DNA of 64,000 nt from Patescibacteria group bacterium (GTDB taxonomy: Bacteria > Patescibacteriota > Patescibacteriia > JAHJFT01): contig JAQTTB010000001.1 in the NCBI GenBank assembly GCA_028710985.1, positions 19,280 to 83,279 of the forward strand, written 5' to 3'. The translations under genes and the position numbers were made by a program. The notes below the pieces were generated by a model. That model worked only from the letters and a program-made list of their open reading frames with translations, made no database searches and had not been told where the DNA came from. Shown piece by piece: positions 10,713-53,000 of the stretch. Position 1 is the first letter of the stretch. The number at the start of each line of letters is the position of its first letter.

Positions 10713-11037
10713 CTTCACTCTTCTCTCCCACCGCGATTTCGCGGGTAATTTTTGTGATATTTTTTTCGATTGACTGAATTTTAATGAATATTCTGAACGC
10801 GAGATAAAATAACAGCACGATTGAAAGATATGTCGCAAGATCCGCGCCGCGCTCGACTCCGAACCAGGCCGCCGCCACGTCGGTTTTCTTTGGGATTACC
10901 GCCGCCGCGCTGACCGCAATCCAAAACAAAAGCCAAACCGCGAGCCATCCGGCGGTAATGTCTTTTGATCGGTACTTGCGGAACGCTCTCCAGGCCGCAA
11001 TCGCCGCAAATAATATAATAACCGCTTGAATTATCAC
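10693..11037 (-). CDS. small membrane protein, DUF2304-like (usual partner of polyprenol-phosphate GT2 enzymes)
   Basis: 114-aa ORF with a GTG start in a GTGA overlap with the upstream GT2 stop. Three TM helices plus the C-terminal amphipathic IFIKIQSIEKNITKITREIA. Confidence 0.65.
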   Translation of the reverse strand: MIIQAVIILFAAIAAWRAFRKYRSKDITAGWLAVWLLFWIAVSAAAVIPKKTDVAAAWFGVERGADLATYLSIVLLFYLAFRIFIKIQSIEKNITKITREIAVGEKSEDAKKHE

Positions 11038-11705
11038 AAAAATTTATTTAATAAATAATCCCAGACTATTTTTAACGAGCCGAGCGATCTCTGTCCTTTC
11101 GCCAGGCTTTCCGGCGTGTATTTAACCGTTACCGGCACTTCGACATATCTTAATTTGTTCCTTCCGATTTCGTCAAGAATTTCCGAAGCGTGAGCCATTC
11201 TGTCCTGGGTAATTTTAATCTTCTCGGCCGCCTCACGGCTCAATGCGCGGAATCCGTTATGCGTGTCTGTGACCCTAAGCCCGGAAGTCAAACGGGTAAA
11301 AATTATACCACCCATAAGCACGAGCTGGCGCAAAGCCGGCACATTGGATTTTTTTCCCAAAAACCGCGAGCCCAGCGCCACATCCGCCCCGCCAAGAATA
11401 ATCGGCTTCACCATCTCGTCAATCTCTTCGGCCAGATGCTGGCCGTCAGCATCATAATGCACGATAATATCCGCGCCCAGGCTCCGGAGAGTGAATTCGG
11501 TACCCGTGGCAAGAGCCGCCCCCTGTCCACGGTTAATCACGTGACGCAGTACCACCGCTCCGGCCGTTCTTGCGACTTCAGCCGTCGCGTCGGTTGAACC
11601 GTCATCAACAACTACGGCGGCATCAATATGCGGCTTTATATCTTCTATGACTTTCGTGATAGAAGCCTCCTCGTTGTAAGCTGGTATTACTGCTACTATT
11701 TTCAT
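11034..11705 (-). CDS. glycosyltransferase family 2, polyprenol-phosphate sugar synthase-like (soluble DPM1/GtrB-type)
   Basis: 223-aa ORF: KIVAVIPAYNEEASITKVIEDI...VVVDDGSTDAT...HYDADGQH. Confidence 0.8.
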   Translation of the reverse strand: MKIVAVIPAYNEEASITKVIEDIKPHIDAAVVVDDGSTDATAEVARTAGAVVLRHVINRGQGAALATGTEFTLRSLGADIIVHYDADGQHLAEEIDEMVKPIILGGADVALGSRFLGKKSNVPALRQLVLMGGIIFTRLTSGLRVTDTHNGFRALSREAAEKIKITQDRMAHASEILDEIGRNKLRYVEVPVTVKYTPESLAKGQRSLGSLKIVWDYLLNKFL

Positions 11706-13082: not shown

Positions 13083-13114
13083 TTTGTTCCATTGTTCTAT
13101 TGTTTTATTGTTCT
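13083..13114 (-). repeat. 8-nt periodic word array (sense AGAACAAT AAAACAAT AGAACAAT GGAACAAA) across the GtrA-like stop codon
   Basis: The plus strand reads TTTGTTCC ATTGTTCT ATTGTTTT ATTGTTCT. This is the same word family as 9091-9122 and 53967-54074. The stop codon is at 13097-13099. Confidence 0.8.
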
Positions 13115-13552
13115 CTTAAAAATGAATATTTTCTGAAAAAAGAAATTAATAAAATAGAGAATGGCATACACCACAAATTTTGCCGCCACGTCCCAGATTC
13201 CGAGGTAATGCACCGTGACAAACAGCAGGCCTTCGCCGATCAAAAAAACCACAAGCGCGTTAATCCAATAAACCGCATACTGCCTGACCACGCGCTTATC
13301 CGTATCGCCGAAAGTATAAGTCTTGTTAAACCAATAACCCACGATCGCGCCGAGCGTCATGCTCACAAAATTCGCCAAAAGATAATGTATGCCGAAAATT
13401 TTTGTGAGCAATAGATACGTCCCAAAATCAACGCCGGTCGCCCCGGTCCCCACGATCGTGAACCGCCACAGCTGTTTGATGGTTTGAAAAAGATTTGATT
13501 TTTGAGATATATTTTTGAGATTTGAGATTTGAGATTTGAGATTATCTTCCAT
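13097..13552 (-). CDS. GtrA-like family membrane protein (putative lipid-linked sugar translocase)
   Basis: 151-aa ORF with 4 TM helices: RFTIVGTGATGVDFGTYLLL...LANFVSMTLGAIVGYWFNKTYTF. Confidence 0.75.
   Translation of the reverse strand: MEDNLKSQISNLKNISQKSNLFQTIKQLWRFTIVGTGATGVDFGTYLLLTKIFGIHYLLANFVSMTLGAIVGYWFNKTYTFGDTDKRVVRQYAVYWINALVVFLIGEGLLFVTVHYLGIWDVAAKFVVYAILYFINFFFQKIFIFKRTIKQ
13514..13541 (-). repeat. perfect heptanucleotide tandem repeat (TTTGAGA)x4 in codons 4-13 of the GtrA-like gene
   Basis: Exact copies at 13514-20, 13521-27, 13528-34 and 13535-41, plus an isolated fifth copy at 13501-07. The array also lies in the divergent promoter region of the priming transferase gene. 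Confidence 0.95.
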
Positions 13553-13613
13553 ACTCTTGAAATTTTATCTAATATTAGTTAATATATGCCCACAAGCACA
13601 TATATTATCTCCT

Positions 13614-14993
13614 ATGACCGACACCATTGTCAAAGTAAAGAAAGCCCTGCTCGTGCTCGGCGACCTCGCGGCCGCCTATTCTTCGCTTTATCTTACCCTG
13701 CTTTTACGCTACCGCGACGGCCTGAATCTTGAAGCCTGGCAGAGCCATCTCGTCCCGTTCACCGCAATTTACCTTGCCTGGATTGTGGTATTTTTTATAA
13801 GCGACCTTTATAACCTGAACACCGCGCGAAACACCGTGGATTTCCGCCGACGCTTCTTCCAGGCTCTGGCAATCAACGCCCTGATCGCGGTCGCCTTCTT
13901 CTACCTCAATCCCGCCGTCGCTATTGCGCCAAAAACCAACCTTATTATCAACATCGCAGTTTTTGCGATTCTCGCCTACTTTTGGCGCGCGATTTTCAAC
14001 CTCGCGGCTTCACATTCAATTTTCGCGAACCGCGTGCTCTTTATTGGTTCACAGAAAAAATTTCAAGACATCATGCCCGACCTCGCACGAGGCGCCTATC
14101 ACGACTGGAAGGTCGTTGCCGTTGTCGACCCGCAGGAGATTAAAGAATACCGCCGCGACAACGTCAGTTTTTATAAAAACACCACCCCGCTTTCCGAAAT
14201 CATTAACCAGGAAAAAATCAGCACCATCGTGCTCGGCCTCTCCCCGGAAGAGCACCCGCGTCTCGGAAGAGAACTCTACGACTGTATCTTTGCCCATTCA
14301 ATCGCAGTCGTGAATTTGCCGAAATTTTATGAAATCGTCACCCAGCGCCTGCCGGCCGATTTGCTTTCAGAATACTGGTTTTTGGAAAATATCAAAGAAA
14401 TGGACAAAAAATTCCACGACTCGGCAAAGGCCATCGCCGATATCGCCCTCTCAATCGCCTTTGGCGCATTTTTCCTCGCCACCCTACCGATTATCGCGGC
14501 CGCGACACTGATCGACAGCGGCTGGCCAATTTTTTACACCCAGAACCGCGTCGGCCGCCGAGGCAAAATTTTCAAAATCATCAAATACCGCACCATGTAC
14601 CGCGATGCCGAGCTCCAGGGCGCGCTCTGGGCTAAGCGCAACGATGCACGCATTACCCGCGTCGGCCGCTTGCTCCGCAAAACCCGGCTGGACGAACTGC
14701 CGCAGATTATCAATGTCCTCAAGACCGACATGAGCTTCATTGGCCCGCGGCCGGAACGCCCGGAATTTGTAGCTGATTTGGAACGCATGATGCCGTTCTA
14801 CGCTCTCCGCCACTTAACCCGGCCCGGACTCACCGGTTGGGCGCAAATCAATTATGAATACGCCGCGAGCTACGAGGAAAATTTGAAAAAACTACAATAC
14901 GATTTATACTATATCAAGAACCGGTCACTCCTCTTGGACTTTAAAATACTTTTAAAGACCGCCGGGATTGTAATAAGCAGGAAGGGGCAATAA
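13614..14993 (+). CDS. polyprenyl-phosphate sugar-phosphate transferase (WbaP/EpsB-type priming enzyme)
   Basis: N-terminal TM helices, a central domain, and a C-terminal Bac_transf motif region: RDAELQGALWAKRNDARITRVGRLLRKTRLDELPQIINVLKTDMSFIGPRPERPEF...PGLTGWAQIN. The ORF-track TTG start at 13536 is probably an extension. ATG at 13614 (MTDTIVKV) is preferred. Confidence 0.85.
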   Translation: MTDTIVKVKKALLVLGDLAAAYSSLYLTLLLRYRDGLNLEAWQSHLVPFTAIYLAWIVVFFISDLYNLNTARNTVDFRRRFFQALAINALIAVAFFYLNPAVAIAPKTNLIINIAVFAILAYFWRAIFNLAASHSIFANRVLFIGSQKKFQDIMPDLARGAYHDWKVVAVVDPQEIKEYRRDNVSFYKNTTPLSEIINQEKISTIVLGLSPEEHPRLGRELYDCIFAHSIAVVNLPKFYEIVTQRLPADLLSEYWFLENIKEMDKKFHDSAKAIADIALSIAFGAFFLATLPIIAAATLIDSGWPIFYTQNRVGRRGKIFKIIKYRTMYRDAELQGALWAKRNDARITRVGRLLRKTRLDELPQIINVLKTDMSFIGPRPERPEFVADLERMMPFYALRHLTRPGLTGWAQINYEYAASYEENLKKLQYDLYYIKNRSLLLDFKILLKTAGIVISRKGQ

Positions 14994-16054: not shown

Positions 16055-17308
16055 ATGGAAATCAAATTAATAAAAATCGCTGAAAAATTTTTCAAAACCG
16101 ACATTAATTATTTAATTAAGGGCGGCTTTTGGCTTACTTCCGGGCAAATCCTTACTTCGCTGTCATCTCTAATTTTAGCAATCGCTTTTGCCAATTTGCT
16201 GGAAAGAGAATCTTATGGCACCTATAGATATATTCTTTCCGCAATCGGCATCATTTCGCTCTTTACTCTTCCGGGAATAAATACCTCTTTGATAAGATCG
16301 ATAGCGAATAATTTTTCCGGATCCTACCTGAAGGCAATTAAGACAAAGTTTAAATTTTCACTGATTGCCACTATAGCTTGCTTAATAGTCGGAATATATT
16401 ATTTTTATTGCCAAAATAATGAAATTGCCTTTTGTTTCTTTATTATTGCATCCATTATCCCTTTCAATAAATCATCCGAACTCTATTTGTCTGTACTGAA
16501 CGGCCAGAAAAGATTTAAACTCTATACTATTCTATATGCGAGTTCAAATATTATTGCAACGTTGTCAATAATCTTAACTTTATTTTTCACGGATAGTTTA
16601 GCGCTAATTTTAACGTCGTATTTCTTATCTTATACGATCCTGCAATTAATATTTTCTTTGTACGTAAAAAAATACCTAAACAACAATGAGGCTGATAATA
16701 CCGTTGAATATGGCATTCATTTGAGCATAATGGATGTAATCAAAACGATCGCCGGACATCTCGACAGGATACTCATATTCAACGCAATGGGACCGTTAGA
16801 GGTGGCTATTTACTCTTTTGCCGTTGTCCCGCATAGCCAGGCAAAAAGTTTCCTCGAAAATATTAAAGTCCTCGCTTTCCCCAAACTTAGCGCGTCCAAC
16901 GAGGAGGATATAAGAAAATTTTTACCAAAAAAAATTCTAAAAATGGAGCTCATAATCGCAATCTTGGTAATCATCTACATCTTCGCCGCTCCGACCCTAT
17001 TCCAAATATTTCTCCCGAAATACATGGATTCGGTCCTCTATTCCCAAGTGTACTTTATCTCGTTGATATTTTTCCCAAGAACAATTTTATCTACCGCAAT
17101 GACCGCAAAAATAAAAAAGAAAGAACTTTATTCCATAAGAATCCTCAGTCCAATACTAAGAATTATACTGATGGTCGTCGGATTAAAATTCTTTCAACTT
17201 TGGGGCGTACTCGTCGCGGGTATGGCGGCAAATGCGCTCATGATGTTAATCTACGGCTATTACTTTAAAAAAGCATTCAAGCAAATCACTTATCAATCAT
17301 CTCTCTAG
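16055..17308 (+). CDS. Wzx-like polysaccharide flippase (MOP superfamily)
   Basis: 417-aa ORF with ~12 TM helices and the typical N-terminal region (INYLIKGGFWLTSGQILTSLSSLILAIAFANLL). It is the first AT-rich gene of the island. Confidence 0.7.
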   Translation: MEIKLIKIAEKFFKTDINYLIKGGFWLTSGQILTSLSSLILAIAFANLLERESYGTYRYILSAIGIISLFTLPGINTSLIRSIANNFSGSYLKAIKTKFKFSLIATIACLIVGIYYFYCQNNEIAFCFFIIASIIPFNKSSELYLSVLNGQKRFKLYTILYASSNIIATLSIILTLFFTDSLALILTSYFLSYTILQLIFSLYVKKYLNNNEADNTVEYGIHLSIMDVIKTIAGHLDRILIFNAMGPLEVAIYSFAVVPHSQAKSFLENIKVLAFPKLSASNEEDIRKFLPKKILKMELIIAILVIIYIFAAPTLFQIFLPKYMDSVLYSQVYFISLIFFPRTILSTAMTAKIKKKELYSIRILSPILRIILMVVGLKFFQLWGVLVAGMAANALMMLIYGYYFKKAFKQITYQSSL

Positions 17309-22408: not shown

Positions 22409-23521
22409 TTATCCTAAAATCTTCATTAAATCATTATAAAACCGATCGGGGTTATACTGATTCTTTATCAATTCAAAGCCGGCATTTCCCATTTTTATTA
22501 AGTTGTGCTGATCCGAAATAGTCAGGCGAATCTTATCTATTAAATCGACCAAATTTTTACTTTCAAAGATGTAACCATTCACGCCATTCTCAATATATTC
22601 CTTCGTTCCATTTTCGCTCGAACTAATAACCGCCAGTTTGCAACTCATTGCTTCAACTATCGAAAAAGCCGCGGCTTCACCATAGCTCGGTAAAATGAAT
22701 ACATCATTTACTTTATATTCTTCATAAACATCCTTCCAATTAATATCAAATTTCACCTTCACAATTTCCGATAAATTATTAACTTTAATGTACTCTAATA
22801 ATTCATTTGTATATTCATTCTCATCCCTTTCGCCGACTAATGTAAGATTAATATTAAAATTATCTTTTAATTTTTCAACGGCCTTAACTAATAAAATCTG
22901 ATTCTTGCGCTCTTGGAATTTACCTACGCAGATAATATTAACCCATCCGCCAATAAAATACTCCTTGTTGAAGTCAAGCGCTTCATGAACAAATGGAATA
23001 TAAAAAAGATTCTTATTCTTACTTGCATAAGCGTCGTTACCCCTCAATGGAGTAATTACCGACGCCTTCCACAAAAAACCAACCAGCCAAATCGAGAAAC
23101 TCTTGATTTTTTTTCTAAATTTTTCAATTTGAATTAAAAAAATAATTTTTTTAACACCCAGGAACCGACTTAGAAGCGCGCCAAGGATTGAATAAAGACT
23201 ATCAATATTTTTTATCAGCACAACGTTCGGCCGATATTCCTTTATCAAATGATATAGTGAAAATATGGGTGGATAGCTATATCGTATCTCGAACCGATTC
23301 TTAATTGTGCGTCCACCCCGCTTATTGAATATTCTATTAAATAGCTTAAAAATATTCGAATATCCAACAACTCGCGGTTCTAGAATATCATAGCATTCTG
23401 ATTTTCCGCGATACATAACAAACATGGCCACTTCGTGTCCAAATGACTGAAGGGCCTCAATCATGTAGAAAAAATTTGTATGATATCGCGGGGTAAGAAA
23501 TAAAAATTTCATTGATTTCAA
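22409..23521 (-). CDS. glycosyltransferase, GT4-like
   Basis: 370-aa ORF: YGEAAAFSIVEAMSCKLAVISSSENGTKEYI. Confidence 0.8.
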   Translation of the reverse strand: MKSMKFLFLTPRYHTNFFYMIEALQSFGHEVAMFVMYRGKSECYDILEPRVVGYSNIFKLFNRIFNKRGGRTIKNRFEIRYSYPPIFSLYHLIKEYRPNVVLIKNIDSLYSILGALLSRFLGVKKIIFLIQIEKFRKKIKSFSIWLVGFLWKASVITPLRGNDAYASKNKNLFYIPFVHEALDFNKEYFIGGWVNIICVGKFQERKNQILLVKAVEKLKDNFNINLTLVGERDENEYTNELLEYIKVNNLSEIVKVKFDINWKDVYEEYKVNDVFILPSYGEAAAFSIVEAMSCKLAVISSSENGTKEYIENGVNGYIFESKNLVDLIDKIRLTISDQHNLIKMGNAGFELIKNQYNPDRFYNDLMKILG

Positions 23522-25191
23522 ATTTTTAAAATTTTATAATCCTTATTACTGAAAACTTCCTCCAGTCCGTCTGCTGAATTCGAACTATAGTATAAATCCA
23601 TATATTTACCGCGCGGCAAAAGAATATATGAACAATCAAGCCTAACGGCAAAATTTACAATCTCTTTGAAGTCAGCCGCTTTTTCAACGATCTGATTATA
23701 TGCCTGTCTCTCCTCATACCATCTTTTAGCATTTTCGAAATTTGAAGTAACCCAAATAGAACCTTCTTTTTCAGTCAGATTAGTATTCTGCCTACTTAAT
23801 ACTTTGAATTTAAATTCATTTTGAAAGTCATCAAAAACAAAAATCCGGTTCTCACTAACGGAAAGCGCGCTTTTTGCCCAAATTGCCGCCTCATAAAGAT
23901 TGTTAAAGTTATTTGTATTCGATTCATCCACCACGGGGGCTAAATTATATTTTATTCTTATGCCTTCGGGCACCAATGCCCTTACTACCGGCCTAATAAC
24001 GGGCGCAAAAAAATAAATTGGCGTAACCACAACGATCAAAGATAATGCTACGGACAGCCATTTTTTATTCATCCTAGAATAAAGCAAATAAACAACTAGA
24101 GCGAACTGCATGATTAGAATGAAGCCCAACACCCTCATTAGCCGAATGTGCTCCACGAAAAATGGCAGCTCTCCATTTTTCATTAAAAAATAATTAGTAA
24201 CATCAACACCGATAACGAATAAAATGGTTATAATCATCAGTATGGTGCTGATTTTATGAACTGCCCGTTTCTCCGAATCTAATGAGGACCCGTAGATACG
24301 CATGATAAAAAACGATAAAAAAAACATTAAGATCATTGTAAAACTATCCCACATCGAACGTTTAATTCTGGCCAAGTCGACTGTCGCGAGAAAACCGTTC
24401 GCTTCAAACCTATATTGAACAATTTCAGAATGCAAAGCAACGTCCTCGGCGCTCAAATACTCCTCGGCCGGAATCATGCCGGTACTCGAATTAGTAAAAT
24501 GGTTTATCAAAAATGGCAAAGCTACTATAAAATAAATGACAGCAAAAATAATTATCGGCTTGAAATATGCCCTATGTTGCTTCGCATAAAAAATCAAAGC
24601 GCCCAAGATAAATAAACCGATAACTACGCTTCCGACGGGCGGATATAAGTAAAGCAAAATGCCGGCAGATATTGCCAATAAAATATTATATTTATTATTT
24701 TTTAAACCATAAATTATCCAATAGTAGCTAAGCAAAAAATAAAAAGGAAAGGCGAATGTATTGCCGCGCAAATTCCCAAGATCGAGCAAGCCAATTCTTG
24801 TAAAGAATACATTACGCGGTACTACGCACAAAAGTCCCACCAATGCCGCTAGGGACCAGCTTTTAAATATTTTTTTAGCAATTAATCCGCTCGCAAGATA
24901 GGTTATGGCAATTATAAGAATAGTAAATAGATGATAGCTCACTAAATCATACTTCAAGCCTGGATTGAAATAATAAAAAACCGGGAACGCTGCATATAGC
25001 TCCTCCTGATTATAAGCCGACGGCACGTCTGTCCATACTCCATCATTTTTTTGTATCATCAATAATTGATAACACCAAAGATCGCTGCTCAAATCGCCAA
25101 GATTACTACCATAATTAGTAAAAATATAATAAAAAATTATGACTACAAGTATGATAGTAAAAAAAAGTTTAGAATTGAAAAATTTTAACAT
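23518..25191 (-). CDS. polytopic membrane protein with C-terminal soluble domain (GT-C-like or Wzy-like; unassigned)
   Basis: ~557 aa from ATG at 25191 (MLKFFNSK); the ORF-track TTG at 25224 overlaps the upstream GT2. More than 12 hydrophobic helices, then a ~170-aa hydrophilic tail. Confidence 0.55.
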   Translation of the reverse strand: MLKFFNSKLFFTIILVVIIFYYIFTNYGSNLGDLSSDLWCYQLLMIQKNDGVWTDVPSAYNQEELYAAFPVFYYFNPGLKYDLVSYHLFTILIIAITYLASGLIAKKIFKSWSLAALVGLLCVVPRNVFFTRIGLLDLGNLRGNTFAFPFYFLLSYYWIIYGLKNNKYNILLAISAGILLYLYPPVGSVVIGLFILGALIFYAKQHRAYFKPIIIFAVIYFIVALPFLINHFTNSSTGMIPAEEYLSAEDVALHSEIVQYRFEANGFLATVDLARIKRSMWDSFTMILMFFLSFFIMRIYGSSLDSEKRAVHKISTILMIITILFVIGVDVTNYFLMKNGELPFFVEHIRLMRVLGFILIMQFALVVYLLYSRMNKKWLSVALSLIVVVTPIYFFAPVIRPVVRALVPEGIRIKYNLAPVVDESNTNNFNNLYEAAIWAKSALSVSENRIFVFDDFQNEFKFKVLSRQNTNLTEKEGSIWVTSNFENAKRWYEERQAYNQIVEKAADFKEIVNFAVRLDCSYILLPRGKYMDLYYSSNSADGLEEVFSNKDYKILKI

Positions 25192-25192
25192 T

Positions 25193-26050
25193 TTATTTAC
25201 GTTGTTTAAATAGAAGATCAGCAATTAGAGAAATGAAAAATATGAGCACGGCGCTTAACATGAGGAATATGCTGAAATTACCAACAAAATTATCGCCTAC
25301 AAGATCATATATACCCTTGGCGAAACCGACTGTAAAGAATGCAATTCCAAACGGTATTAAAAATTTTAATGGTTGAAAATAGAAGGCAATTTTAAAAATT
25401 AAATTTATGTAAGTAAAAAAATTCCACGGCCTAATACCAGACTCGCCCACCCTTTTGTGATAGTCGATTGGCAGGAATTTGACTAAGTAATCATTCTTTA
25501 AAAACGCCATAGTAATGGTTGACGTAAATGAATATCGGCTGGGATACAATCCCCAAAACTCAAAACAGATATCTTTTTTGAAAAGCCTCATCCCCGAATT
25601 CAAGTCAGGTATTTTTCTATTGACAAGCCATCCCGCAAACCAATTTACAAATTTTTTCGGAACCCGTCTAATAAATTCGGTATGGTTAACCTTCGTCACT
25701 CTTGCACCGACAATCATGTCATAAGAATCCATGAACGGAAAAAAATCCGATAGCTTCTCTACGGGATAAGTGCCATCGGCATCGATAATAAAAATCCACT
25801 TGCCGGCTGCGGTTTTAATCCCCCTTTTCAAGGAGGCTCCGTAACCTAAATTATATGGATTGCGAATAATCTTTATATCTGATCGTGATTCTAATGTTTT
25901 CAGAGTGCCATCCTCGCTCTTATCATCAATGGCAATTATTTCAAAAGTATGTGATGTACACTTTTCGGCAACTCGTGCCAGTCCATCCAAAACATTCGCA
26001 ACCGTCGCTTCTTCGTTATAACATGGGATAACAATTGAAATTTCACTCAT
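25193..26050 (-). CDS. glycosyltransferase family 2 with C-terminal TM helices (GtrB/ArnC-like polyprenol-phosphate sugar synthase)
   Basis: 285-aa ORF: SIVIPCYNEEATV...IAIDDKSEDGT...IDADGTYP, with two C-terminal TM helices. Confidence 0.8.
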   Translation of the reverse strand: MSEISIVIPCYNEEATVANVLDGLARVAEKCTSHTFEIIAIDDKSEDGTLKTLESRSDIKIIRNPYNLGYGASLKRGIKTAAGKWIFIIDADGTYPVEKLSDFFPFMDSYDMIVGARVTKVNHTEFIRRVPKKFVNWFAGWLVNRKIPDLNSGMRLFKKDICFEFWGLYPSRYSFTSTITMAFLKNDYLVKFLPIDYHKRVGESGIRPWNFFTYINLIFKIAFYFQPLKFLIPFGIAFFTVGFAKGIYDLVGDNFVGNFSIFLMLSAVLIFFISLIADLLFKQRK

Positions 26051-26054
26051 ATAA

Positions 26055-26981
26055 TTATTTATTTATTGCAATTATTCGAATATTGGAGGTGGCATATAGA
26101 GCCCCGAGAACAAAATCAATTAACGAAAAAAATAGTGTTAAAAATAAATTATTTATATTAAACCAACCGGCAATTTTTTTATGTTTGTCATCGAAATAAT
26201 GATGCAATGACTGAATCCAGAAAGTCGGGCTCAGCAAAAATTGAATTCCAATAACAGCGAAATTGCACTCATTCAACAAACCCACGAGGATATTTTTATT
26301 AAAAATATGCCAATGTCGTGGTATATGATAGCCTCCCCAATATCTCTTTCTAAAAATTCTCGCATCTAGAGAATCGTAATTTGGGGTTTCGATAATAAGC
26401 AAGCCGTTCCGTTTAAGCATCCTCCTGGCCTTTAAAATAATTTCGCGTGGATTATGAAGGTGCTCAATCGTTTGATTCAAAATGATTGCGTCAAAATAAT
26501 CATAATAACCCCCCATTTCTTCGAATCTTCCTGCAATGAATTCGATACCATGCCGATTTAATATATCACCAGTTGCAGAATTAATATCATTGCCATACAA
26601 TTTCCATCCGCTACCCCTGTGTTTCTTAATAATTCTGAGCAATTCTCCGTTGCCGCACCCACCGTCGAGAATTCTAGCATCATCCGAAAGATTAGCAAGC
26701 AAAGGACGAACCTTCAATCTTTGCACAAAATTCCGCGCAATCTTTGTAATAAAATTTAACCCCTCTTCAAATTTATAAGGAAAATAATTTGCTGGATAAA
26801 TCTTTTCAATTTCTCCGACGGTCGGATTGGGATTTAGGTATATCACACCGCACTTTAAACACTTTACGTAACAATATTCCTGATCGGATGTGTGATATTC
26901 AAAATCTTTTCCATGCGCCCAAACTTTGTACAGATCCGATCCGCATACACCACGACAAGCTTTTTGGGTCCTTATTTCCAT
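26055..26981 (-). CDS. class I SAM-dependent methyltransferase with N-terminal Cys-rich zinc-ribbon
   Basis: 308-aa ORF: CRGVCGS...CLKCGVIYLNP, then ILDGGCGNGELLRIIK and FDAIILNQTIEHL. Confidence 0.8.
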   Translation of the reverse strand: MEIRTQKACRGVCGSDLYKVWAHGKDFEYHTSDQEYCYVKCLKCGVIYLNPNPTVGEIEKIYPANYFPYKFEEGLNFITKIARNFVQRLKVRPLLANLSDDARILDGGCGNGELLRIIKKHRGSGWKLYGNDINSATGDILNRHGIEFIAGRFEEMGGYYDYFDAIILNQTIEHLHNPREIILKARRMLKRNGLLIIETPNYDSLDARIFRKRYWGGYHIPRHWHIFNKNILVGLLNECNFAVIGIQFLLSPTFWIQSLHHYFDDKHKKIAGWFNINNLFLTLFFSLIDFVLGALYATSNIRIIAINK

Positions 26982-27080
26982 ATTTTTTTATAATCCACCG
27001 GAAACTGCTTCTCATAAATTGGCAATAAATAATCAAATTTTCCCCACTGATATCCGAATCTCTCTTCAGAACCCATACAT

Positions 27081-28913
27081 TTATAATTCAAGCTTATTTT
27101 TACGGTAAAATTTTACAAAACTTATCAAACCCCACAACTCTCTACTATAATCTTTCTTATTCCCCATATGATCCGCAACCATTTTTTCAATCGCTTTACC
27201 ATTTAAAAATGCTATATCCGCAATATTCTTTTTATCTAAAATATCCATCATGAAATCCTTTAATTCATTCTTCAGCCAATCCGCGATCGGAAAGCTGAAT
27301 CCCTGCTTCTTTGTATAAATTAACTTTTTCGGTAAATACCTCTCTAGAAGCTTTTTTAAAATATACTTAGTGGTGATACCGCGAATTTTTAATCCCGGCG
27401 CCAAGGAATTGCTAAACTTTATTACTTCGTTGTTCAAGAAAGGAACACGTACCTCTAAAGAATTAGCCATGCTCATTCGATCGACCTTGACTAAATACTC
27501 CCCTTCCAGCACGGTTTTCTGATCAACATACAATAGCTGATTCAGCACATCTTCCCCCTCCACGACTTTAAAATACTCTGCAAAATCGTCGCAAACATTG
27601 TTAAAAAAATCTTCAACTAGGATATCCGCATTATGCATTATTCTATAATAAAAATGAGATTTTGTAAATGGATACTTGGCCGCATAAACAAACCTTTTTA
27701 ACTTATAATCAAAGCTCATTTTTCTGTAAGAAGACGGCAAATAATGAACCATTTTTTCCACCAATGTTTTTATGGGCAGGTGGCGATAAATTTGACTAAT
27801 TCTAGGCAAATAATAGATAGGGTAACCCCCAAATAACTCATCCCCGCCGTCGCCGGATAAGCAGACTGTCGCTCGCTCTTTTGCAAAATGGCACAAGAAA
27901 TATGTGGGAATCGCGCTGCTGTCACCAAAAGGCTCCTGAAAATAATCAAAAATATCCGGAATGGCATTTATGACCTCCCTCTTCTCTAGATAAATCGAAT
28001 TATGATTAGTGCCAATAATCTTTGCGATTTTACTGGCGTTCTTTGATTCGTCATAAGAATTCTCACCGAAATTAAATCCAACCGTAAATGTATTCAGGTT
28101 TCCTACATGCTCCTTGGCGATGGCGGTGATTAAACTAGAATCAACGCCGGAGGATAAGAATACCCCCAATGGCACATCGCTGACCAAGGATTGTTCGATT
28201 GATTCATCGAGCACGCACCGTAGGGCATCGATTGAATTATTAAGATCTTGATAATTATTTGTAAATGTCGGTTTCCAATATTCCTGAATATTAATTTGCT
28301 CTTTCTGCAAATCAAAAATCGCAAAACTAGCCGGTGGCAATTTAAAAACGTTTTCAATTATGGACTCATTGCCATAAATGTAATTTTGATAAAAAAATCT
28401 TCTGACTGCCCTTAAATTAATTTTTTTGTTGATCTGGAGCGATGCCAGCTCAGAGGCGAATTGAAATATCCCGTCATGAAAACTATAGTAAAGTGGTTTT
28501 ATTCCCATTCGATCTCTGGCCAAAATTAATTGATTTTTAACTTCATCGTAAATTGCCAGGGCGAACATGCCATCGAATAATTTGAAGGCTTCTGGTCCAT
28601 ATTTAATATAGGCCCTTAATACAACCTCCGTATCGGAATCGGAGAAATAGTCACCGGGCAAATCTTTTTTTAATTTTTTAAAATTATATACTTCACCATT
28701 GTAGACAATCGCATAGGCGCCAATTCTCATGGGTTGGCTCGCCCTTTGAGAAAGATCAATGATAGAAAGACGCCGGTGTCCTAATTTGACCCTCTGATCT
28801 TCGGATATAAAAAAACCTGCCGCATCCGGACCGCGGTGGAGCATTGAATCTCTTCTCTTCAAAAAAATTTCCTTATCAAATTTCGATGAATATTCTCCGA
28901 TAATTCCGCACAT
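27081..28913 (-). CDS. asparagine synthase (glutamine-hydrolysing)-family amidotransferase
   Basis: 610-aa ORF with the N-terminal nucleophile MCGIIG, a GATase-II domain and the PP-loop LSSGVDSSLITA. Confidence 0.9.
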   Translation of the reverse strand: MCGIIGEYSSKFDKEIFLKRRDSMLHRGPDAAGFFISEDQRVKLGHRRLSIIDLSQRASQPMRIGAYAIVYNGEVYNFKKLKKDLPGDYFSDSDTEVVLRAYIKYGPEAFKLFDGMFALAIYDEVKNQLILARDRMGIKPLYYSFHDGIFQFASELASLQINKKINLRAVRRFFYQNYIYGNESIIENVFKLPPASFAIFDLQKEQINIQEYWKPTFTNNYQDLNNSIDALRCVLDESIEQSLVSDVPLGVFLSSGVDSSLITAIAKEHVGNLNTFTVGFNFGENSYDESKNASKIAKIIGTNHNSIYLEKREVINAIPDIFDYFQEPFGDSSAIPTYFLCHFAKERATVCLSGDGGDELFGGYPIYYLPRISQIYRHLPIKTLVEKMVHYLPSSYRKMSFDYKLKRFVYAAKYPFTKSHFYYRIMHNADILVEDFFNNVCDDFAEYFKVVEGEDVLNQLLYVDQKTVLEGEYLVKVDRMSMANSLEVRVPFLNNEVIKFSNSLAPGLKIRGITTKYILKKLLERYLPKKLIYTKKQGFSFPIADWLKNELKDFMMDILDKKNIADIAFLNGKAIEKMVADHMGNKKDYSRELWGLISFVKFYRKNKLEL

Positions 28914-28919
28914 AGATAC

Positions 28920-29399
28920 TTAATTCTCTTTAAAGCAAAAAACGAATCTTTTATTAATTAAAAATGTAAAAAAGGACATTAATAATCCGACCAGGGCAAC
29001 GGATAAAAGGTAATAAAAACCTAAAATAGTTGTTAGCAAATAGACCAAAGTGAAGGTAATTAATCCTATTGCGCCATATATCGCGAGATAACCAAGGTAC
29101 CTTGCAACATAACCTGATTTTCCATGACCAGAAAATGTAAATAATGAATTCATTATAAAACTAAAAGTCCAGGTAATAAAAGTTGCGATTACAAAAGATA
29201 ACATGTACCAAAAATGCAGTGATTCAGTAAAAATGAAAGTTAATAATAAATTCAACAAAAAAGAACTGACTCCAATGATGAAAAATATCGGATATCTCCT
29301 AAAGATATTTATTATATTCAAAGCCATCTTGAAAAAATTAATAAAGTCACGCTTCAACAATTTTCTTTTTACGACCTCCGAATTTCCATGAATTGCCAT
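28920..29399 (-). CDS. GtrA-like small membrane protein
   Basis: 159-aa ORF with 4 TM helices, ending in FLINKRFVF. The start may be the internal ATG at 29327 (MALNIINIF), because 29399 overlaps the upstream gene by 53 nt. Confidence 0.6.
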   Translation of the reverse strand: MAIHGNSEVVKRKLLKRDFINFFKMALNIINIFRRYPIFFIIGVSSFLLNLLLTFIFTESLHFWYMLSFVIATFITWTFSFIMNSLFTFSGHGKSGYVARYLGYLAIYGAIGLITFTLVYLLTTILGFYYLLSVALVGLLMSFFTFLINKRFVFCFKEN

Positions 29400-30783
29400 T
29401 TCTCATCTGAATATAAATTGAATTCAAATCAATTTCTGAATTACTTCTCAACCATCGTTCGATAAGATCCCTTGATAAATATGTAGTTGTTGGCGTTACC
29501 AATTGGTCAAAAACAATGTGGTGAAAAAAAATAAAGTTCTCCTCGGAAATCCAAACGGTATATTGATATAATGGTAATTTTTTTACAAAAGAAATACTTT
29601 TAAGTATATTGATTATTTTAGAGTAAAGAAAAAATAAAATAGCCAATGGGCCAGCGATAAAATATTTATTTAACCACCATGGTGTATGACAAACAATGCG
29701 ACGAAGTCGATCGATGACGTTTATTATTATCCAATTGCCTTCTTCCGCATAAACCCAGCAATGAAAACGACCGCCGGGTATAGTATTTTTAATTACAAAA
29801 TTAAAACCCAACTCCGGCTCCTTTAAATGATGGAGAACGCCAATACAATAAACAACATCGAACCCACCTTCGCTGAATTGTAAAATATCATCCTGAATAA
29901 TCCTATATTTTGTATTTTTGATATCTTCTAAATTTTTTCTCGCCGAATCGACGGAAGCACCTAAGTCAACCCCAACCATTTCACGCGGCTGCCAATTTGC
30001 TAAATGCACCATCAGGCTGCCATTGCCGCAGCCGAGCTCTAATATTTTATTTCCAGAAAAATCATTCTTGGTCAGTGGATGCATCCAATCCTCGAACTGT
30101 TTAAATGTATATATTGAACCAGCGACCAGATGATTCCACGATTTGGCAAATGCATCTGCCGTACCCTGATCCGGACTAGCAATAGCTTCATTCAGCTCCT
30201 TGGAGTGTGATTTTACACAAACGAATTCAAACGAAATCTCATCAAATCCCCCAACCCAAAAGCACCATATTCTGCTGCAAAAAACCTGGTTAAAATTAGC
30301 TAAACCGCTAATAAATTTATCTACTATTTTCAGTAGTTGCGTGGAAATTTCGCCATAACCCAAATATTGCAATAAATGCGGAAAAGCCATCCACCGCAGT
30401 TCCATTCTTTTCAGCCTAAATTCGACGCCGATATATCCAGATGAAGTATACTTTTCATTAAAGTAAAGGGGGAAAGCAACATCAAAACCGTGTGCATGTT
30501 GAGCGTGCGTAAAGCCGCGAGAAAAATGCGGCACTTTCAATTTTAAAATGCCGCCGTCTCTTAAAATTCTGTGCATCTCTTTCATCACCTCGAACGGTTT
30601 ATCGAGATGCTCCAAAACATGATAAGCCTCAATCAAATCAAAGCTATTCGATTCAAATGGATAAGGCAAACTGTTCAGGTCATGGATAACATCCGGTGAA
30701 ACTAACGGATTGATGTCAACATTGATATAATCGCTCTTTTTTGACGCACCGCATCCTAAATTTAATTTGTTCGTACTTTTCAT
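29347..30783 (-). CDS. tandem double SAM-methyltransferase with C-terminal membrane segment
   Basis: 478 aa. Domain 1: LNLGCGASKK...FDLIEAYHVLEHL. Domain 2: ILELGCGNGSLMVHL...FDVVYCIGVLHHL. Then the hydrophobic segment FIAGPLAILFFLYSKII. Confidence 0.7.
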   Translation of the reverse strand: MKSTNKLNLGCGASKKSDYINVDINPLVSPDVIHDLNSLPYPFESNSFDLIEAYHVLEHLDKPFEVMKEMHRILRDGGILKLKVPHFSRGFTHAQHAHGFDVAFPLYFNEKYTSSGYIGVEFRLKRMELRWMAFPHLLQYLGYGEISTQLLKIVDKFISGLANFNQVFCSRIWCFWVGGFDEISFEFVCVKSHSKELNEAIASPDQGTADAFAKSWNHLVAGSIYTFKQFEDWMHPLTKNDFSGNKILELGCGNGSLMVHLANWQPREMVGVDLGASVDSARKNLEDIKNTKYRIIQDDILQFSEGGFDVVYCIGVLHHLKEPELGFNFVIKNTIPGGRFHCWVYAEEGNWIIINVIDRLRRIVCHTPWWLNKYFIAGPLAILFFLYSKIINILKSISFVKKLPLYQYTVWISEENFIFFHHIVFDQLVTPTTTYLSRDLIERWLRSNSEIDLNSIYIQMRNGNSWKFGGRKKKIVEA

Positions 30784-30800
30784 AACTGGATTTAAAATGT

Positions 30801-31754
30801 CTAAAAATTAATTTTAGATTTTAAAACGTACGGTTTCTCCCCTCGCGATTCATAATAAGTGCGCATGATCAATTCCGCTAAAACACCCATGGCGATAAGC
30901 TGTATGCCGACAATGATAAATAAAGCAGTCAATATCGGCAATGGAGTCTCCACGAAACTTCTTAATCCAAAAATTTTAAGCACAATCGCAGATAGGCCGG
31001 CCATAATCCCGACAAAAAGCGCGATAAACCCCATCCCTCCAAAAAAATGCATCGGCTTATTCAAATACTTTTCAAAAAATTTTATAACTACCAAATCCAG
31101 TAAAACTCTAAAAATTCTAGATAAACCATAATTGCTCCGACCGGCTTTTCTTGGACGATAGTTTACCTCCACTTCTGTCAGATTAGCGCCTTGGCGTACG
31201 GCATAAGCCGGTATAAACCGATGCATTTCTCCATAGAGGGAAAACCCGTGTAATATTTTTTTTCTATATGCCTTCAATGTGCATCCATAGTCATGCAACT
31301 TAACATTAGTAATTCTTGAAATCAACCAGTTCGCCATGAGGGAGGGCAGTCTACGACTTAATTTATTCTTTTGCCAACGCCCGCGACGCCACCCGGAAAC
31401 AACGTCATACCCGTTATTAATACGCTCCAAGAGCCTTGGAATATCGGCCGGGTCATTTTCTAAATCACTATCCATGGTCACGATTATATCACTGCTCGCA
31501 TATTCAATCCCGGCTTGAAGCGCGGCGGTTTGTCCGCGATTTACCGCAAAACTTAAAACCTTAATTTTATTATTATCGCCCGCTAGTGATTTTAACACGG
31601 CCAAAGAATTGTCGCTCGACCCATCGTCAACCAGAATTATTTCATAATCATAACTATTCCTCTCCATTACGGACACGATCTCTCGGACCAATTCCAATAA
31701 ATTTTTTTCCTCATTATAGACTGGTATAACAATCGATAAATGCATATTTCCCAT
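30801..31754 (-). CDS. glycosyltransferase family 2, GtrB/ArnC-like polyprenol-phosphate sugar synthase
   Basis: 317-aa ORF: SIVIPVYNEEKNL...ILVDDGSSDNS...TMDSDLENDP, with two C-terminal TM helices. Confidence 0.85.
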   Translation of the reverse strand: MGNMHLSIVIPVYNEEKNLLELVREIVSVMERNSYDYEIILVDDGSSDNSLAVLKSLAGDNNKIKVLSFAVNRGQTAALQAGIEYASSDIIVTMDSDLENDPADIPRLLERINNGYDVVSGWRRGRWQKNKLSRRLPSLMANWLISRITNVKLHDYGCTLKAYRKKILHGFSLYGEMHRFIPAYAVRQGANLTEVEVNYRPRKAGRSNYGLSRIFRVLLDLVVIKFFEKYLNKPMHFFGGMGFIALFVGIMAGLSAIVLKIFGLRSFVETPLPILTALFIIVGIQLIAMGVLAELIMRTYYESRGEKPYVLKSKINF

Positions 31755-33418
31755 TAAAATTTAATTAAAACAAAATATTCATTTTGCGATATGGGAAGAT
31801 CCCCTTGATCCCCTTCTTTCACCACTCCGGCTAACGCTGAGTTCGAACGCAATAGCGCATAATTTGCCCCATATTTACGACCAAAATCTATCAACTTAAC
31901 GATATCGTCACCGTGTAGGGCATTGTTTTGTTCTTCAAATACTCTGCGCCATTCTACCAATTGATTCTTGCCCGACATTAAATATGCGGATCCCTCTTCA
32001 AAGGAAGTAACTATATTAACCCTGCAGAAATAACGCAAATTAAAATCATTACTAATCACGGTATCCCCGTCGCCGACACCGCCGTTTTTAAGTTGCTGGC
32101 AAACTATATTATATATCTTTTCCTGGTCTTCAAACACCTTATTTTGAAATACCCTGGGTATATATTCCTCCTGATAATTCTCATAACCTAATAAAAATTG
32201 AAACCATTCGAAGCCAAAGGAGGAGCTCAAAAAGCCCAAAATGAGCAGGGCGGATAAGAAAATTACTCGAACTTTTTTTTGTAAAAAATATCTATTGCGT
32301 CTAAATAATTCTTCCAGTGAAACAGCCACTAATAAAAATATACCAAAGTAAACAAATTTAAAAAATCGACTAGTTTGCTGAAAAATAAACGGACCATCCA
32401 AATGGATCATCGCTATTTGTAGTATTGGAAAAAATACACTAAAAAATATTGAGAGCAGTATAAATAAAATTGACCACTTTGCGATAAGATAATCCAAGGA
32501 TTCTTTTATGATTAACCTCTTTTTCAAGAGGTACAAAACATATGCAACGAATGGCGCAAAGAAAACAAGAATAATTATCATATGCCGTATCCACATAAGG
32601 CTCTCCGGCGGATAATCCCATGGCGTCCTAAAAATTATCGCTTCCAAGAAGTCTAAGCTTGAGTATTCAACATTAGATAAAAATTTGGAATTTATTGCAT
32701 CTAAACGAAAAATTATTTCATACAACAGCAAGGATGAACCAAGAATAAATGCAGCTGACGCTGATGCGGTCTGTTTCAAAACACCAAAAAAATTATTGCG
32801 CCAAAATAAAAGAAATAAAGATATTACGAGAGCTAGAAAAGTAAAAAATAATATGCTTACCGGATGAATATAAGAGACTATACCGAGCAATAAGAACAAC
32901 GGCCAAATTTTCTTATTGTCGTAAATAAATTTAATAATTAATGCACCGATTATCCATAAGAATGGCATCGCCGTCGAACGTCCCAAAACTTCATAATTCG
33001 TGAGAACTCCGAATATTTCGTTCCCGACCGAAAAGCGCGGGGCAAGGGCTACTATAGCTACAACGATCGCGATTGAACGCCGTATGCCCAATATTCTAAG
33101 CGCAATATACGCCGAATAACCAGTAAAAAAAACCATAGAAAATAATAGTATATTGCGGCTGGTAAATGGATCAAAGAAATAACTCAACGCATTAATAATA
33201 TATGGATAAACGTAGTATCGATACGTCATCGTGGACAATAATTCATTTCCTGGATAAGAACTATCCATTAAAGCCCGGTTAGACGCCATAATGGCAATCT
33301 CATCGCCATTGAGTCTAAACGGCAGGGAAAAATTATAAACAACCGACAGAGCGGCAATAAACAAAAAAATCAATATTACACATAAATTGACGATTCCAAC
33401 ATTTTTACGCTCTGACAT
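31754..33418 (-). CDS. polytopic membrane protein with C-terminal soluble domain (GT-C-like; unassigned)
   Basis: 554-aa ORF with more than 11 helices and a ~150-aa C-terminal hydrophilic domain. Its stop overlaps the downstream GT2 start by 1 nt. Confidence 0.55.
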   Translation of the reverse strand: MSERKNVGIVNLCVILIFLFIAALSVVYNFSLPFRLNGDEIAIMASNRALMDSSYPGNELLSTMTYRYYVYPYIINALSYFFDPFTSRNILLFSMVFFTGYSAYIALRILGIRRSIAIVVAIVALAPRFSVGNEIFGVLTNYEVLGRSTAMPFLWIIGALIIKFIYDNKKIWPLFLLLGIVSYIHPVSILFFTFLALVISLFLLFWRNNFFGVLKQTASASAAFILGSSLLLYEIIFRLDAINSKFLSNVEYSSLDFLEAIIFRTPWDYPPESLMWIRHMIIILVFFAPFVAYVLYLLKKRLIIKESLDYLIAKWSILFILLSIFFSVFFPILQIAMIHLDGPFIFQQTSRFFKFVYFGIFLLVAVSLEELFRRNRYFLQKKVRVIFLSALLILGFLSSSFGFEWFQFLLGYENYQEEYIPRVFQNKVFEDQEKIYNIVCQQLKNGGVGDGDTVISNDFNLRYFCRVNIVTSFEEGSAYLMSGKNQLVEWRRVFEEQNNALHGDDIVKLIDFGRKYGANYALLRSNSALAGVVKEGDQGDLPISQNEYFVLIKF

Positions 33419-33430
33419 ATTTTATGAAAA

Positions 33431-34159
33431 TTATTTTCTACATATCGCCATCAACGAAACGCCGAATGGAAAATTAAAACGCTTCAATACAAACGCTTCC
33501 AGGGAAAACACCCAAAATAATATACGAGATAAGGGGCCGCCGCTGCCGACAAATTCGATTTTCTTAACAGAAAAAAAAGCTTTTTCGAAAAAACGGAAAA
33601 ATAATATTGGCAAAAATAAAATGGTATTAAAATACGAAGAACGTACAACGTGCAAACCCAAACTCCGTAATTTTACAAAAATTTGATTGTAGGTATAACG
33701 GCGAAAATGATGTCCCGCCTCATCGGCCCAGCCCCACAAAAAATTAAAAGCAGGAACAAAAATAATAATTATTCCTTCTTTTTTTACTACACGTTTCAAT
33801 TCACTAATAGCTTTATTATCATCAGACACGTGTTCTAATACATCGAGGCAAATCACAACATCAAAAAAATTATCTGGAAATTGAATATTCGTAATATCTC
33901 CCAAATCGACATTCTCTAAAAAATTTTGTTTACAAAAATTAACGGCCAACGGGCTATTATCAACGCCATAACAAACACCGAATTTTTTGAGCTCCTTCAT
34001 CAGCATACCCGTGCCACAACCGACATCGAGCATCTTCAATGCACCACTATGGTCAGAAAAAAAATTACTGATTATATCAGCTACAATTCTTCGCCTCACC
34101 CTATACCACCAATTATCTTTTTCAGCTGTATAAATTAATTTATAGACGTCAGATCGCAT
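33431..34159 (-). CDS. class I SAM-dependent methyltransferase
   Basis: 242-aa ORF: MLDVGCGTGMLMKEL...FDVVICLDVLEHV. Confidence 0.8.
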   Translation of the reverse strand: MRSDVYKLIYTAEKDNWWYRVRRRIVADIISNFFSDHSGALKMLDVGCGTGMLMKELKKFGVCYGVDNSPLAVNFCKQNFLENVDLGDITNIQFPDNFFDVVICLDVLEHVSDDNKAISELKRVVKKEGIIIIFVPAFNFLWGWADEAGHHFRRYTYNQIFVKLRSLGLHVVRSSYFNTILFLPILFFRFFEKAFFSVKKIEFVGSGGPLSRILFWVFSLEAFVLKRFNFPFGVSLMAICRK

Positions 34160-45660: not shown

Positions 45661-45661
45661 A

Positions 45662-47620: not shown

Positions 47621-47701
47621 AGGCTAAAAATTCATAAGTTATACGGATATGATACCATTTTTGCGCAAAAAATACACACTCATGCCATCCATCCCCAACC
47701 T

Positions 47702-47739
47702 AAATCCCGCCCCCGGGCGTCCCCAGGGGCGGGATTTTT
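47702..47739 (-). terminator. GC-rich hairpin terminator after the surface-protein gene
   Basis: AAATCCCGCCCC (47702-47713) pairs with GGGGCGGGATTT (47726-47737), with a 12-nt loop and flanking A/T runs. It starts ~40 nt downstream of the stop at 47778. Confidence 0.5.
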
Positions 47740-47777
47740 GAGTTACTGAATATTGCCGATTACTCGGCCAGTCAAGA

Positions 47778-52991: not shown

Positions 52992-53000
52992 TTATCGGGT

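Follow-up and report, generated by a model that had tools for sequence, protein, structure and literature searches.

What is the function of two large polytopic membrane proteins, each encoded beside a family 2 glycosyltransferase (GT2), in a bacterium of the Patescibacteria group? Both genes lie in a stretch of 64,000 nucleotides (positions 19,280 to 83,279 of contig JAQTTB010000001.1, assembly GCA_028710985.1), which was analysed as a whole and is called the window hereafter. Attachment to a host cell is the way of life of many Patescibacteria, and their surfaces have to recognise that host. To our knowledge, almost nothing has been established experimentally about the cell-surface glycans of Patescibacteria (Candidate Phyla Radiation, CPR), and a literature search on CPR or Patescibacteria together with GT-C enzymes found no paper linking them. 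Our analysis makes it probable that the region holds two, and presumably three, transmembrane glycosylation modules of the GtrA/GtrB/GtrC or ArnC/ArnT type, in which the two polytopic proteins (A and B) would be GT-C glycosyltransferases working on the outer face of the membrane, with a polysaccharide as the likely acceptor. Two "hypothetical proteins" thus receive a concrete predicted function, and a rare GT-C sequence family is defined together with candidate functional residues (D37/D39 and R350/R351 of A/B).

Two pairs of GT2 and polytopic membrane proteins

An initial annotation of the window had reported two GT2/polytopic pairs. The four open reading frames (ORFs) were confirmed, all on the minus strand:

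23518..25191, minus strand: polytopic protein A, 557 aa, predicted to be a glycosyltransferase with the GT-C fold, from an orphan family; D37 is a candidate for the catalytic residue
25193..26050, minus strand: GT2-A, 285 aa, membrane-anchored, GtrB/DPMS/AglJ type (PF00535, E 1.7e-28; DAD at residue 90)
30801..31754, minus strand: GT2-B, 317 aa, ArnC/GtrB type (PF00535, E 9e-38; DSD at residue 95)
31754..33418, minus strand: polytopic protein B, 554 aa, likewise predicted to be a glycosyltransferase with the GT-C fold; D39 (in GDE) is a candidate for the catalytic residue

GT2-A matched the PDB sequences of GtrB (E 8e-15; residues 3-236), DPMS (4e-13) and ArnC (2e-11; 3-257), and GT2-B those of ArnC (9hwj, E 7e-52; 6-312) and GtrB (E 2e-35; 4-310). 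These alignments with solved ArnC, GtrB and DPMS place both GT2s in the polyprenyl-phosphate glycosyltransferase class, which is characterised by a DXD motif, juxtamembrane and C-terminal transmembrane (TM) helices and end-to-end similarity. The C-terminal helices that had been noticed in GT2-A correspond to one strong (~253-283) and one borderline (~221-248) segment; GT2-B has two (234-265 and 266-299). Among NCBIfam models, AglJ covered residues 3-282 of GT2-A with 87.5 bits (cutoff 325), and GT2-B scored 203 bits over the full length of ArnC (cutoff 529) and 159 bits against PgfS.

A 1-nt spacer separates GT2-A from the ORF of protein A (...CGT AAA TAA A ATG TTA...), and the ORF of protein B overlaps GT2-B by 1 nt (...AAA TTT TAATG GGA...), as had been described. 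Both pairs are translationally coupled. Gene order is inverted between them, the GT2 preceding the polytopic protein in the A pair and following it in the B pair.

Proteins A and B define a rare orphan family

Neither A nor B had a Pfam or NCBIfam match at E<=0.01, and the family profiles of both found no match among PDB sequences. In particular, no PMT, PMT_2 or STT3 Pfam domain and no MIR domain was present in either protein; the WWDYG motif was not found, and the sole WD motifs sit in a mid-protein outer loop. BLASTP revealed weak similarity between A and B. Profile-profile comparison of the two families (hhalign) gave a probability of 98.1% (E 6e-14, 406 aligned columns), indicating that they are distant paralogs. 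The family has few members: among 1.84 billion cluster representatives (clusters at 50% identity), a profile search retrieved 131 proteins at E<=1e-3, of which 34 reached E<=1e-30. A pattern scan for the A family in 185,579 species genomes found six loci, all in Patescibacteria metagenome-assembled genomes labelled Parcubacteria, Zambryskibacteria or "Saccharibacteria". A homolog search with a merged A and B alignment returned five B-family proteins and nothing additional. Pfam domains of the remote relatives were scanned in ten long members of 92.

PHW53_00230, from a "Patescibacteria group bacterium", has the same sequence as protein B (100% identity). The public annotation of protein A (PHW53_00200, P0006) is 312 aa long and starts at an internal Leu codon (MSAEDVAL...), so that the N-terminal 245 residues, with TM1-7 and the conserved Asp loop, are omitted. 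The 557-aa ORF is the real gene, because homologs are 546-564 aa long; the truncated annotation is corrected here.

Predicted fold, topology and conserved residues

AlphaFold2 models of A and B were built on an alignment of 24 sequences and reached a pLDDT of 88.3 and a pTM of 0.89 for A, and 84.9 and 0.87 for B. In Foldseek searches the best six matches were GT-C enzymes with probabilities of at least 0.98; PglB, human oligosaccharyltransferase OST-A, AftA and ArnT were found at 0.98-1.00, ArnT being placed lower than AftA, PMT and STT3. Both models are thus similar in three dimensions to solved GT-C enzymes, although sequence identity in the structural alignments with AftA and AftD is 8-11%. 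Transporters of the major facilitator superfamily reached probabilities of <=0.2 with a TM-score of ~0.1, and FtsW 0.63. No WaaL or Wzy chain occurred among the top fold matches, and no Wzy_C match in A or B. Wzy, ligase and transporter identities of A and B were rejected on these fold-search results. The initial annotation had suggested that the two proteins are GT-C-type transferases and had named two outcomes that would refute this, a structural match to Wzy polymerases or transporters and a pairing that is not conserved. Neither outcome was obtained, and the predicted fold, the residues described below and the genetic linkage support its suggestion.

Both proteins are predicted to have ~11 TM helices and, behind them, a soluble C-terminal domain of ~150 aa, which in protein A (~407-557) is an alpha/beta domain predicted to be extracytoplasmic. 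The helices of the models and the charge distribution indicate an N-in, C-out topology. Short loops bearing K/R are cytoplasmic and alternate with long acidic outer loops, a pattern that puts the C-terminal domain, together with loop 1 and the conserved loops, on the outer side of the membrane. The loop after TM1 (53-57 residues) is acidic and contains helices, and the number of TM helices falls within the 7-13 of the GT-C topology.

A map of the GT-C superfamily places an acidic motif, which can be DxD, DD, DE or one D/E, in the first outer loop at a short distance from TM1 (PMC6801728), and the conservation pattern of A and B mirrors this map. The acidic residue that the initial annotation had proposed to look for in this loop is present as D37 (SSDLW) in A and D39 (GDE) in B. 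It is invariant in both paralog families, and among 92 relatives, very remote ones included, 90 have an Asp just behind TM1. The conserved Arg/Lys of GT-C enzymes, their proposed ligand of the donor phosphate, has its counterpart in R350/R351, located in the outer loop between TM9 and TM10 (the C-terminal four-TM cluster), invariant in both families and conserved in 88 of the 92. Further conserved features are R142/R147 in outer loop 2 (Arg in 78/92), a His/Tyr-Pro turn (at least 76/92) and a C-terminal [DE]G...W motif (84-87/92; its Gly in 72/92). Also invariant across both families are Y66/Y69, P125/P127, Y181/Y183, P184/P186, E476-G477/E475-G476 and W491/W490, and R126/R128 is conserved in at least 90% of the sequences. 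Judging from topology and conservation, D37/D39 would occupy the catalytic position, and R350/R351 would be the ligand of the donor phosphate. A near-invariant Asp and Arg of the GT-C type argue against a non-catalytic scaffold.

Companion genes and conservation of the arrangement

The following genes lie between and beside the two pairs, the first of them having been noticed as GtrA-like in the initial annotation:

28920..29399, minus strand: small membrane protein of the GtrA family, between the two pairs (PF04138, E 1.7e-14, 54.5 bits, cutoff 26.1; 3-4 TM)
27081..28913, minus strand: AsnB-type glutamine amidotransferase, 610 aa (PF00733, E 3e-94; GATase_6/7)
26055..26981, minus strand: S-adenosylmethionine (SAM) methyltransferase, 308 aa, with a hydrophobic C-terminus (PF13489, E 2.7e-20; TM 276-299)
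29347..30783, minus strand: protein with a double methyltransferase domain, 478 aa (two Methyltransf_11 stretches, E 1.8e-24; one TM, 375-400)
33431..34159, minus strand: SAM methyltransferase, 242 aa, immediately upstream of protein B (PF08241, E 2.3e-23)

The GtrA-family protein is a putative flippase for a lipid-linked sugar; its true start may be the second ATG, at 29330. The AsnB-type protein is probably a sugar-modifying amidotransferase.

The gene order of the window recurs in independent Patescibacteria contigs (related loci, designated by L numbers) at 35-64% protein identity and is therefore not due to chance. L001/L009 and L004 match the window at 41-64% identity in the order GT4, GtrA, a polytopic protein of 558-564 aa, B, GT2-B, AsnB, methyltransferase, GT2-A, methyltransferase, A and GT4. 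A B homolog directly followed by a GT2-B homolog was found in the window, L001, L004 and, at the contig end, L005; the B-type fusion of L012 is likewise directly followed by a GT2. Conservation of the A module extends to L001, L002 and L004. L002, L003 and L007 are without the B module and keep the order GtrA, AsnB, GtrA, GT2, methyltransferase, methyltransferase and A; there A is followed by one inserted B12-binding radical-SAM gene and then by the downstream block of the window, up to Wzx where the contig reaches. In L006, L008 and L011, a B-like GT2 lies ~6 kb upstream of the A homolog; it is followed by oxidoreductase, GHMP-kinase, SIS and transaldolase genes and then by a methyltransferase and A, and in L006 it is preceded by GtrA and an NTP-transferase gene. 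Pairing, on whose conservation the initial annotation had made its reading depend, thus held for B and GT2-B in every locus seen, but the adjacency of A and its GT2 failed in the last three loci. The locus of protein A nevertheless always holds a GT2 of the polyprenyl-phosphate type wherever enough upstream DNA is available, and GtrA too where the contig reaches.

The companions are conserved as well. The A module is accompanied by a methyltransferase in every related locus, and the AsnB-type gene is kept between the two modules, with homologs of 59-64% identity in L001, L002 and L004 and an Asn_synthase gene at the equivalent position in L012. In L012, moreover, a 785-aa protein (P0042, L012:6001-8358) consists of a GtrA domain (86-214) fused to an A/B-family member (241-748), and its gene is directly followed by a GT2 and then by AsnB, two methyltransferases and a second 544-aa protein without a Pfam match. 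The fusion provides independent evidence for joint action of all three components. From the conserved linkage to GT2s of the ArnC/GtrB/DPMS type and to GtrA, we infer that A and B use a lipid-linked donor.

The gene directly before the A homolog is the methyltransferase in every related locus. The methyltransferases beside the GT2 and GT-C genes (26055-26981, 29347-30783 and 33431-34159) have hydrophobic C-terminal or internal segments, and hence may act at the membrane, possibly on lipid-linked sugars. The polytopic protein of 558-564 aa directly upstream of the B homolog (L004:2184-3860 and L001:1508-3202) is an extra one that has no homolog in the window; its L004 copy reached 27.1 bits against PMT_2 (cutoff 26.1), and the L001 copy was without a Pfam match. 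A comparison of the A/B family with the PMT_2 neighbour protein of L004 by hhalign gave a probability of 14%.

A third set with a split synthase

A looser third set had been reported at 10.7-13.6 kb and proved real:

10693..11037, minus strand: small DUF2304 membrane protein, GacJ/Rv3632 type (PF10066, E 6.4e-22; 3 TM)
11034..11705, minus strand: soluble GT2, PpgS/GacI type, 223 aa (PpgS model 193.9 bits, cutoff 370; DAD at 85)
13097..13552, minus strand: second GtrA-family protein (PF04138, E 1.2e-21, 77.5 bits)

All three GT2s of the window modules thus carry a DXD motif, and all three score below the equivalog cutoffs of their NCBIfam models (ArnC for GT2-B, AglJ for GT2-A, PpgS for the 223-aa GT2). 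Both GtrA proteins are above the gathering score of PF04138 and are small proteins with 3-4 TM. The 223-aa GT2 aligned with the full-length PpgS model (protein residues 5-221) and has no TM segment; it adjoins the DUF2304 gene, whose ORF overlaps its stop by 4 nt. Soluble GT2s with such a partner are known: GacJ and Rv3632 are DUF2304 proteins, co-expression of GacJ enhances GacI, and Rv3632 stimulates PpgS (bioRxiv 10.1101/180810). The third set is therefore recognisable as a split synthase for lipid-phosphate N-acetylhexosamine (HexNAc) with a second GtrA, and by analogy the DUF2304 protein would be the activating partner of the soluble GT2.

With the TTG start under which it is listed, a 414-aa GT2 ORF (9594-10838, minus strand) shares 146 nt with the DUF2304 ORF, and its real start probably lies further downstream. 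Among all ORFs of the window, a broad profile of the A/B superfamily picked out a 698-aa polytopic protein (4975-7071, plus strand; E 8e-7, 20.7 bits, with high compositional bias). This protein has ~14-16 hydrophobic segments and a soluble C-terminus, and is without Pfam, NCBIfam or PDB matches. Its IHPLSG motif resembles IHPVS of protein B, and hhalign with the A/B family gave a probability of 4%. Possibly this protein is a third GT-C, only very distantly related, that works with the PpgS/DUF2304 set.

The surrounding glycan cluster

The modules are embedded in a surface-glycan cluster, nearly all on the minus strand, which forms a low-GC island (GC 0.35-0.40 at 16-42 kb, 0.48-0.52 in the flanks of the window). 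The host genome is Patescibacteria, Parcubacteria-like, and the cluster is of the Wzx/Wzy type. It contains a polyprenyl glycosylphosphotransferase, a Wzx-type flippase, six GT4s, at least six methyltransferase genes, the AsnB-type amidotransferase, a radical-SAM/SPASM protein, a CDP-alcohol phosphatidyltransferase-like protein and epimerases. The genes for assembly of the main glycan are:

13536..14993, plus strand: polyprenyl glycosylphosphotransferase (PF02397, E 7e-62; TIGR03025, 367 bits, above cutoff), the initiating enzyme of the main glycan of the cluster and hence of the likely acceptor
16055..17308, plus strand: Wzx-type flippase for the repeat unit (PF01943, E 8.5e-16), conserved in L002 and L006
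43417..45660, minus strand: Wzy_C protein (O-antigen ligase/polymerase family) with TPR repeats, 747 aa (PF04932, E 3.8e-20), just outside the low-GC island

The Wzy_C-TPR protein accounts for the Wzy/ligase role, for which A and B are therefore not required. Its gene is one of three adjacent minus-strand genes (43417-51557), the others encoding an S8 subtilase with FG-GAP repeats (652 aa) and a 1259-aa secreted protein (47778-51557) that is rich in T/A/G/S and without a family match. The last may be an S-layer-like surface protein and is a possible alternative acceptor. A sigma-70 (region 2/4) sigma-factor/DUF5667 pair (51783-53546) lies upstream of this trio. The low GC of the island (16000-42000) is typical of variable or horizontally exchanged surface-glycan loci.

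Proposed mechanism and alternative explanations

We propose the following pathway. At the cytoplasmic face, GT2-A and GT2-B would each load a monosaccharide from a nucleotide sugar onto polyprenyl (undecaprenyl) phosphate, and the soluble PpgS-like GT2 with its DUF2304 partner would load a third sugar, probably HexNAc; strong homology points to these activities. A GtrA-family protein would then flip the lipid-phosphate sugar outward, a step that the GtrA::GT-C fusion in one relative supports. On the outer face, A and B, for which fold and conservation speak, would move the sugar from the lipid carrier to the acceptor, with D37/D39 catalytic and R350/R351 binding the donor phosphate. The gene context suggests that the acceptor would be the heteropolysaccharide of the cluster itself, which is more likely than a protein, and that modification of the sugars is probably the task of the conserved methyltransferases and the AsnB-type amidotransferase. 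Several points weigh against this scheme. GT2-A and GT2-B fall below the equivalog cutoffs of the sugar-specific models. The fold evidence consists of predicted structures derived from a shallow alignment, and D37/D39 were placed by topology and conservation rather than by residue-level superposition. In L006, L008 and L011, the A homolog is not adjacent to an A-type GT2, so that the pairing of A holds at the level of the locus, and L001 and L004 have three GT-C candidates for two lipid-phosphate GT2s, which makes the assignment of GT2s to GT-Cs ambiguous.

The acceptor is where the most serious alternative arises. A and B could glycosylate proteins, such as the 1259-aa S-layer-like protein, pilins or other surface proteins, in the manner of PMT or STT3/PglB/AglB. 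GT2-B does match PgfS, the GT2 of a streptococcal protein O-glycosylation system, the best model of GT2-A is AglJ, PMT and oligosaccharyltransferase enzymes are among the strong fold matches, and the window encodes a large T/A/G/S-rich secreted protein. However, A and B have no WWDYG motif and no MIR, PMT, PMT_2 or STT3 domain, and their genes are translationally coupled inside a polysaccharide operon, in which the A homolog is followed by the same GT4 (after the radical-SAM insert in L002/L003/L007). Furthermore, the 1259-aa protein is encoded outside the low-GC island and has no homolog in the fetched parts of the related loci. Protein glycosylation therefore appears unlikely to us. A different role on the same polysaccharide, building or priming the main chain outside the membrane like the mycobacterial Aft/Emb arabinosyltransferases, would explain why A sits in an invariant core block of all related loci (methyltransferase, A, GT4, methyltransferase/FemAB, deacetylase-like, methyltransferase, GT4, CDP-OH transferase, Wzx), which suits an essential assembly step better than decoration. 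The ranking of fold matches is silent on acceptor and processivity. We nevertheless judge this role improbable, as the cluster already has a full cytoplasmic pathway for a repeat unit (phosphoglycosyl transferase, six GT4s, Wzx and Wzy_C) and the B module is missing from L002, L006, L008 and L011, as expected for an optional decoration.

It is very improbable that A and B are not glycosyltransferases at all, but a Wzy-type polymerase, an O-antigen ligase, a SEDS-like protein, a transporter or a GT-C-fold scaffold like PIG-U. They are polytopic and without a family assignment, and FtsW was a partial Foldseek match (0.63), yet transporters scored low in the same search, separate Wzy_C-TPR and Wzx proteins exist in the window, the GT-C-type Asp and Arg are near-invariant, and the linkage to polyprenyl-phosphate GT2s and GtrA is tight and conserved, fusion included. 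A bolder version of the glycosyltransferase proposal is that A and B found a Patescibacteria-restricted GT-C family, a candidate for a new CAZy family, which together with the membrane-associated methyltransferases and AsnB would equip the surface of these ultra-small episymbionts, or the proteins exposed there, with unusual sugars. In that case the sugars could be methylated or amidated, and could be heptose-derived in some relatives. We regard this version as doubtful at present.

Comparison with known systems

The window resembles the GtrA/GtrB/GtrC systems of Shigella and Salmonella O-antigens and CsdAB/CD/EF with CflA of Lactococcus lactis, in which a membrane GT2, a GtrA-family putative flippase and an outer GT-C act in succession. 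In L. lactis, several GT-A/GT-C pairs use one shared GtrA flippase (PMC8035078). As in the window, these systems can have several GT-A/GT-C pairs per flippase, and their genes lie in or beside a Wzx/Wzy cluster (PMC8035078, PMC11127046). The type of system is therefore well known, and the proposed mechanism extends a well-known pathway rather than revealing a new one. What is new is the GT-C sequence family, which, unlike the GT-Cs of the GtrABC/Csd systems, belongs to no described GT-C sequence family (it is an orphan in Pfam, NCBIfam and PDB sequence space) and was found in Patescibacteria only. The constant methyltransferase and AsnB-type companions are also new for this kind of system: the methyltransferases are constant, and the AsnB-type gene is present where there is a B-type/GT2-B pair or a GtrA-AsnB block.

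ArnC/ArnT, in which ArnC is the undecaprenyl-phosphate L-Ara4FN transferase, likewise uses an outer-face GT-C to move a sugar from a lipid phosphate, and GT2-B aligns with ArnC over its whole length. By its score, however, GT2-B is not an ArnC ortholog, and the genes for ArnA, ArnB, ArnE and ArnF are absent from the window. Patescibacteria are, as far as we know, generally considered to be without lipopolysaccharide, so that lipid A, the acceptor of ArnT, is not expected as the acceptor here. Mycobacterial AftA and AftD differ from A and B in having no sequence-level relationship with them, and genes of the decaprenyl-phospho-arabinose pathway (phosphoribosyl pyrophosphate (PRPP) transferase, DprE1/2) are absent from the window. 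The third set is like GacI/GacJ/GacL of Streptococcus pyogenes and PpgS/Rv3632/Rv3779 of Mycobacterium tuberculosis in that a soluble GT2 adjoins a DUF2304 membrane partner. It differs from them in its GT-C, for which there are only candidates: protein A, protein B or the 698-aa protein.

A precedent for recognising such a family is GT136. This GT-C family dates from 2024, with ORF12 of Citrobacter youngae O1 as its founder; it had no sequence similarity to existing families and was recognised by its predicted fold and context, showing that new GT-C families are still defined in this way (PMC11127046). Like A and B, it was an orphan GT-C in a three-component context. Unlike them, it has a PRPP-derived pentofuranose donor, a MATE-type flippase and a carbohydrate-binding module, and is experimentally validated, while A and B are known from sequence and predicted fold.

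Other genes of the window and the related loci

In the glycan cluster, a radical-SAM/SPASM protein (36334-37338, minus strand) is encoded between GT4 genes, and B12-binding radical-SAM genes adjoin the A homolog in related loci; these genes suggest unusual sugar modification. A 544-aa protein (20772-22406, minus strand) has a Trm112-like zinc ribbon and a methyltransferase domain, and its C-terminal half is FemAB-like; in L002, L006 and L010, two separate genes cover this region, one of 303-313 aa and one of 243-250 aa. A 319-aa deacetylase-like protein was considered as an analogue of ArnD and rejected, since it had no ArnD match in the PDB sequence search.

The related loci L006 (445-7099), L008, L011 and L012 (91-5980) encode an NTP-transferase, a GFO/DAO oxidoreductase fusion, a GHMP kinase, a SIS isomerase and a transaldolase-like protein, with a HAD phosphatase in L012. 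SIS, GHMP-kinase, HAD and NTP-transferase genes are absent from the window, and a heptose donor, prompted by the related loci, was therefore rejected for it. In the organisms that have them, these genes resemble a pathway of the NDP-heptose type and hint at the donor sugar.

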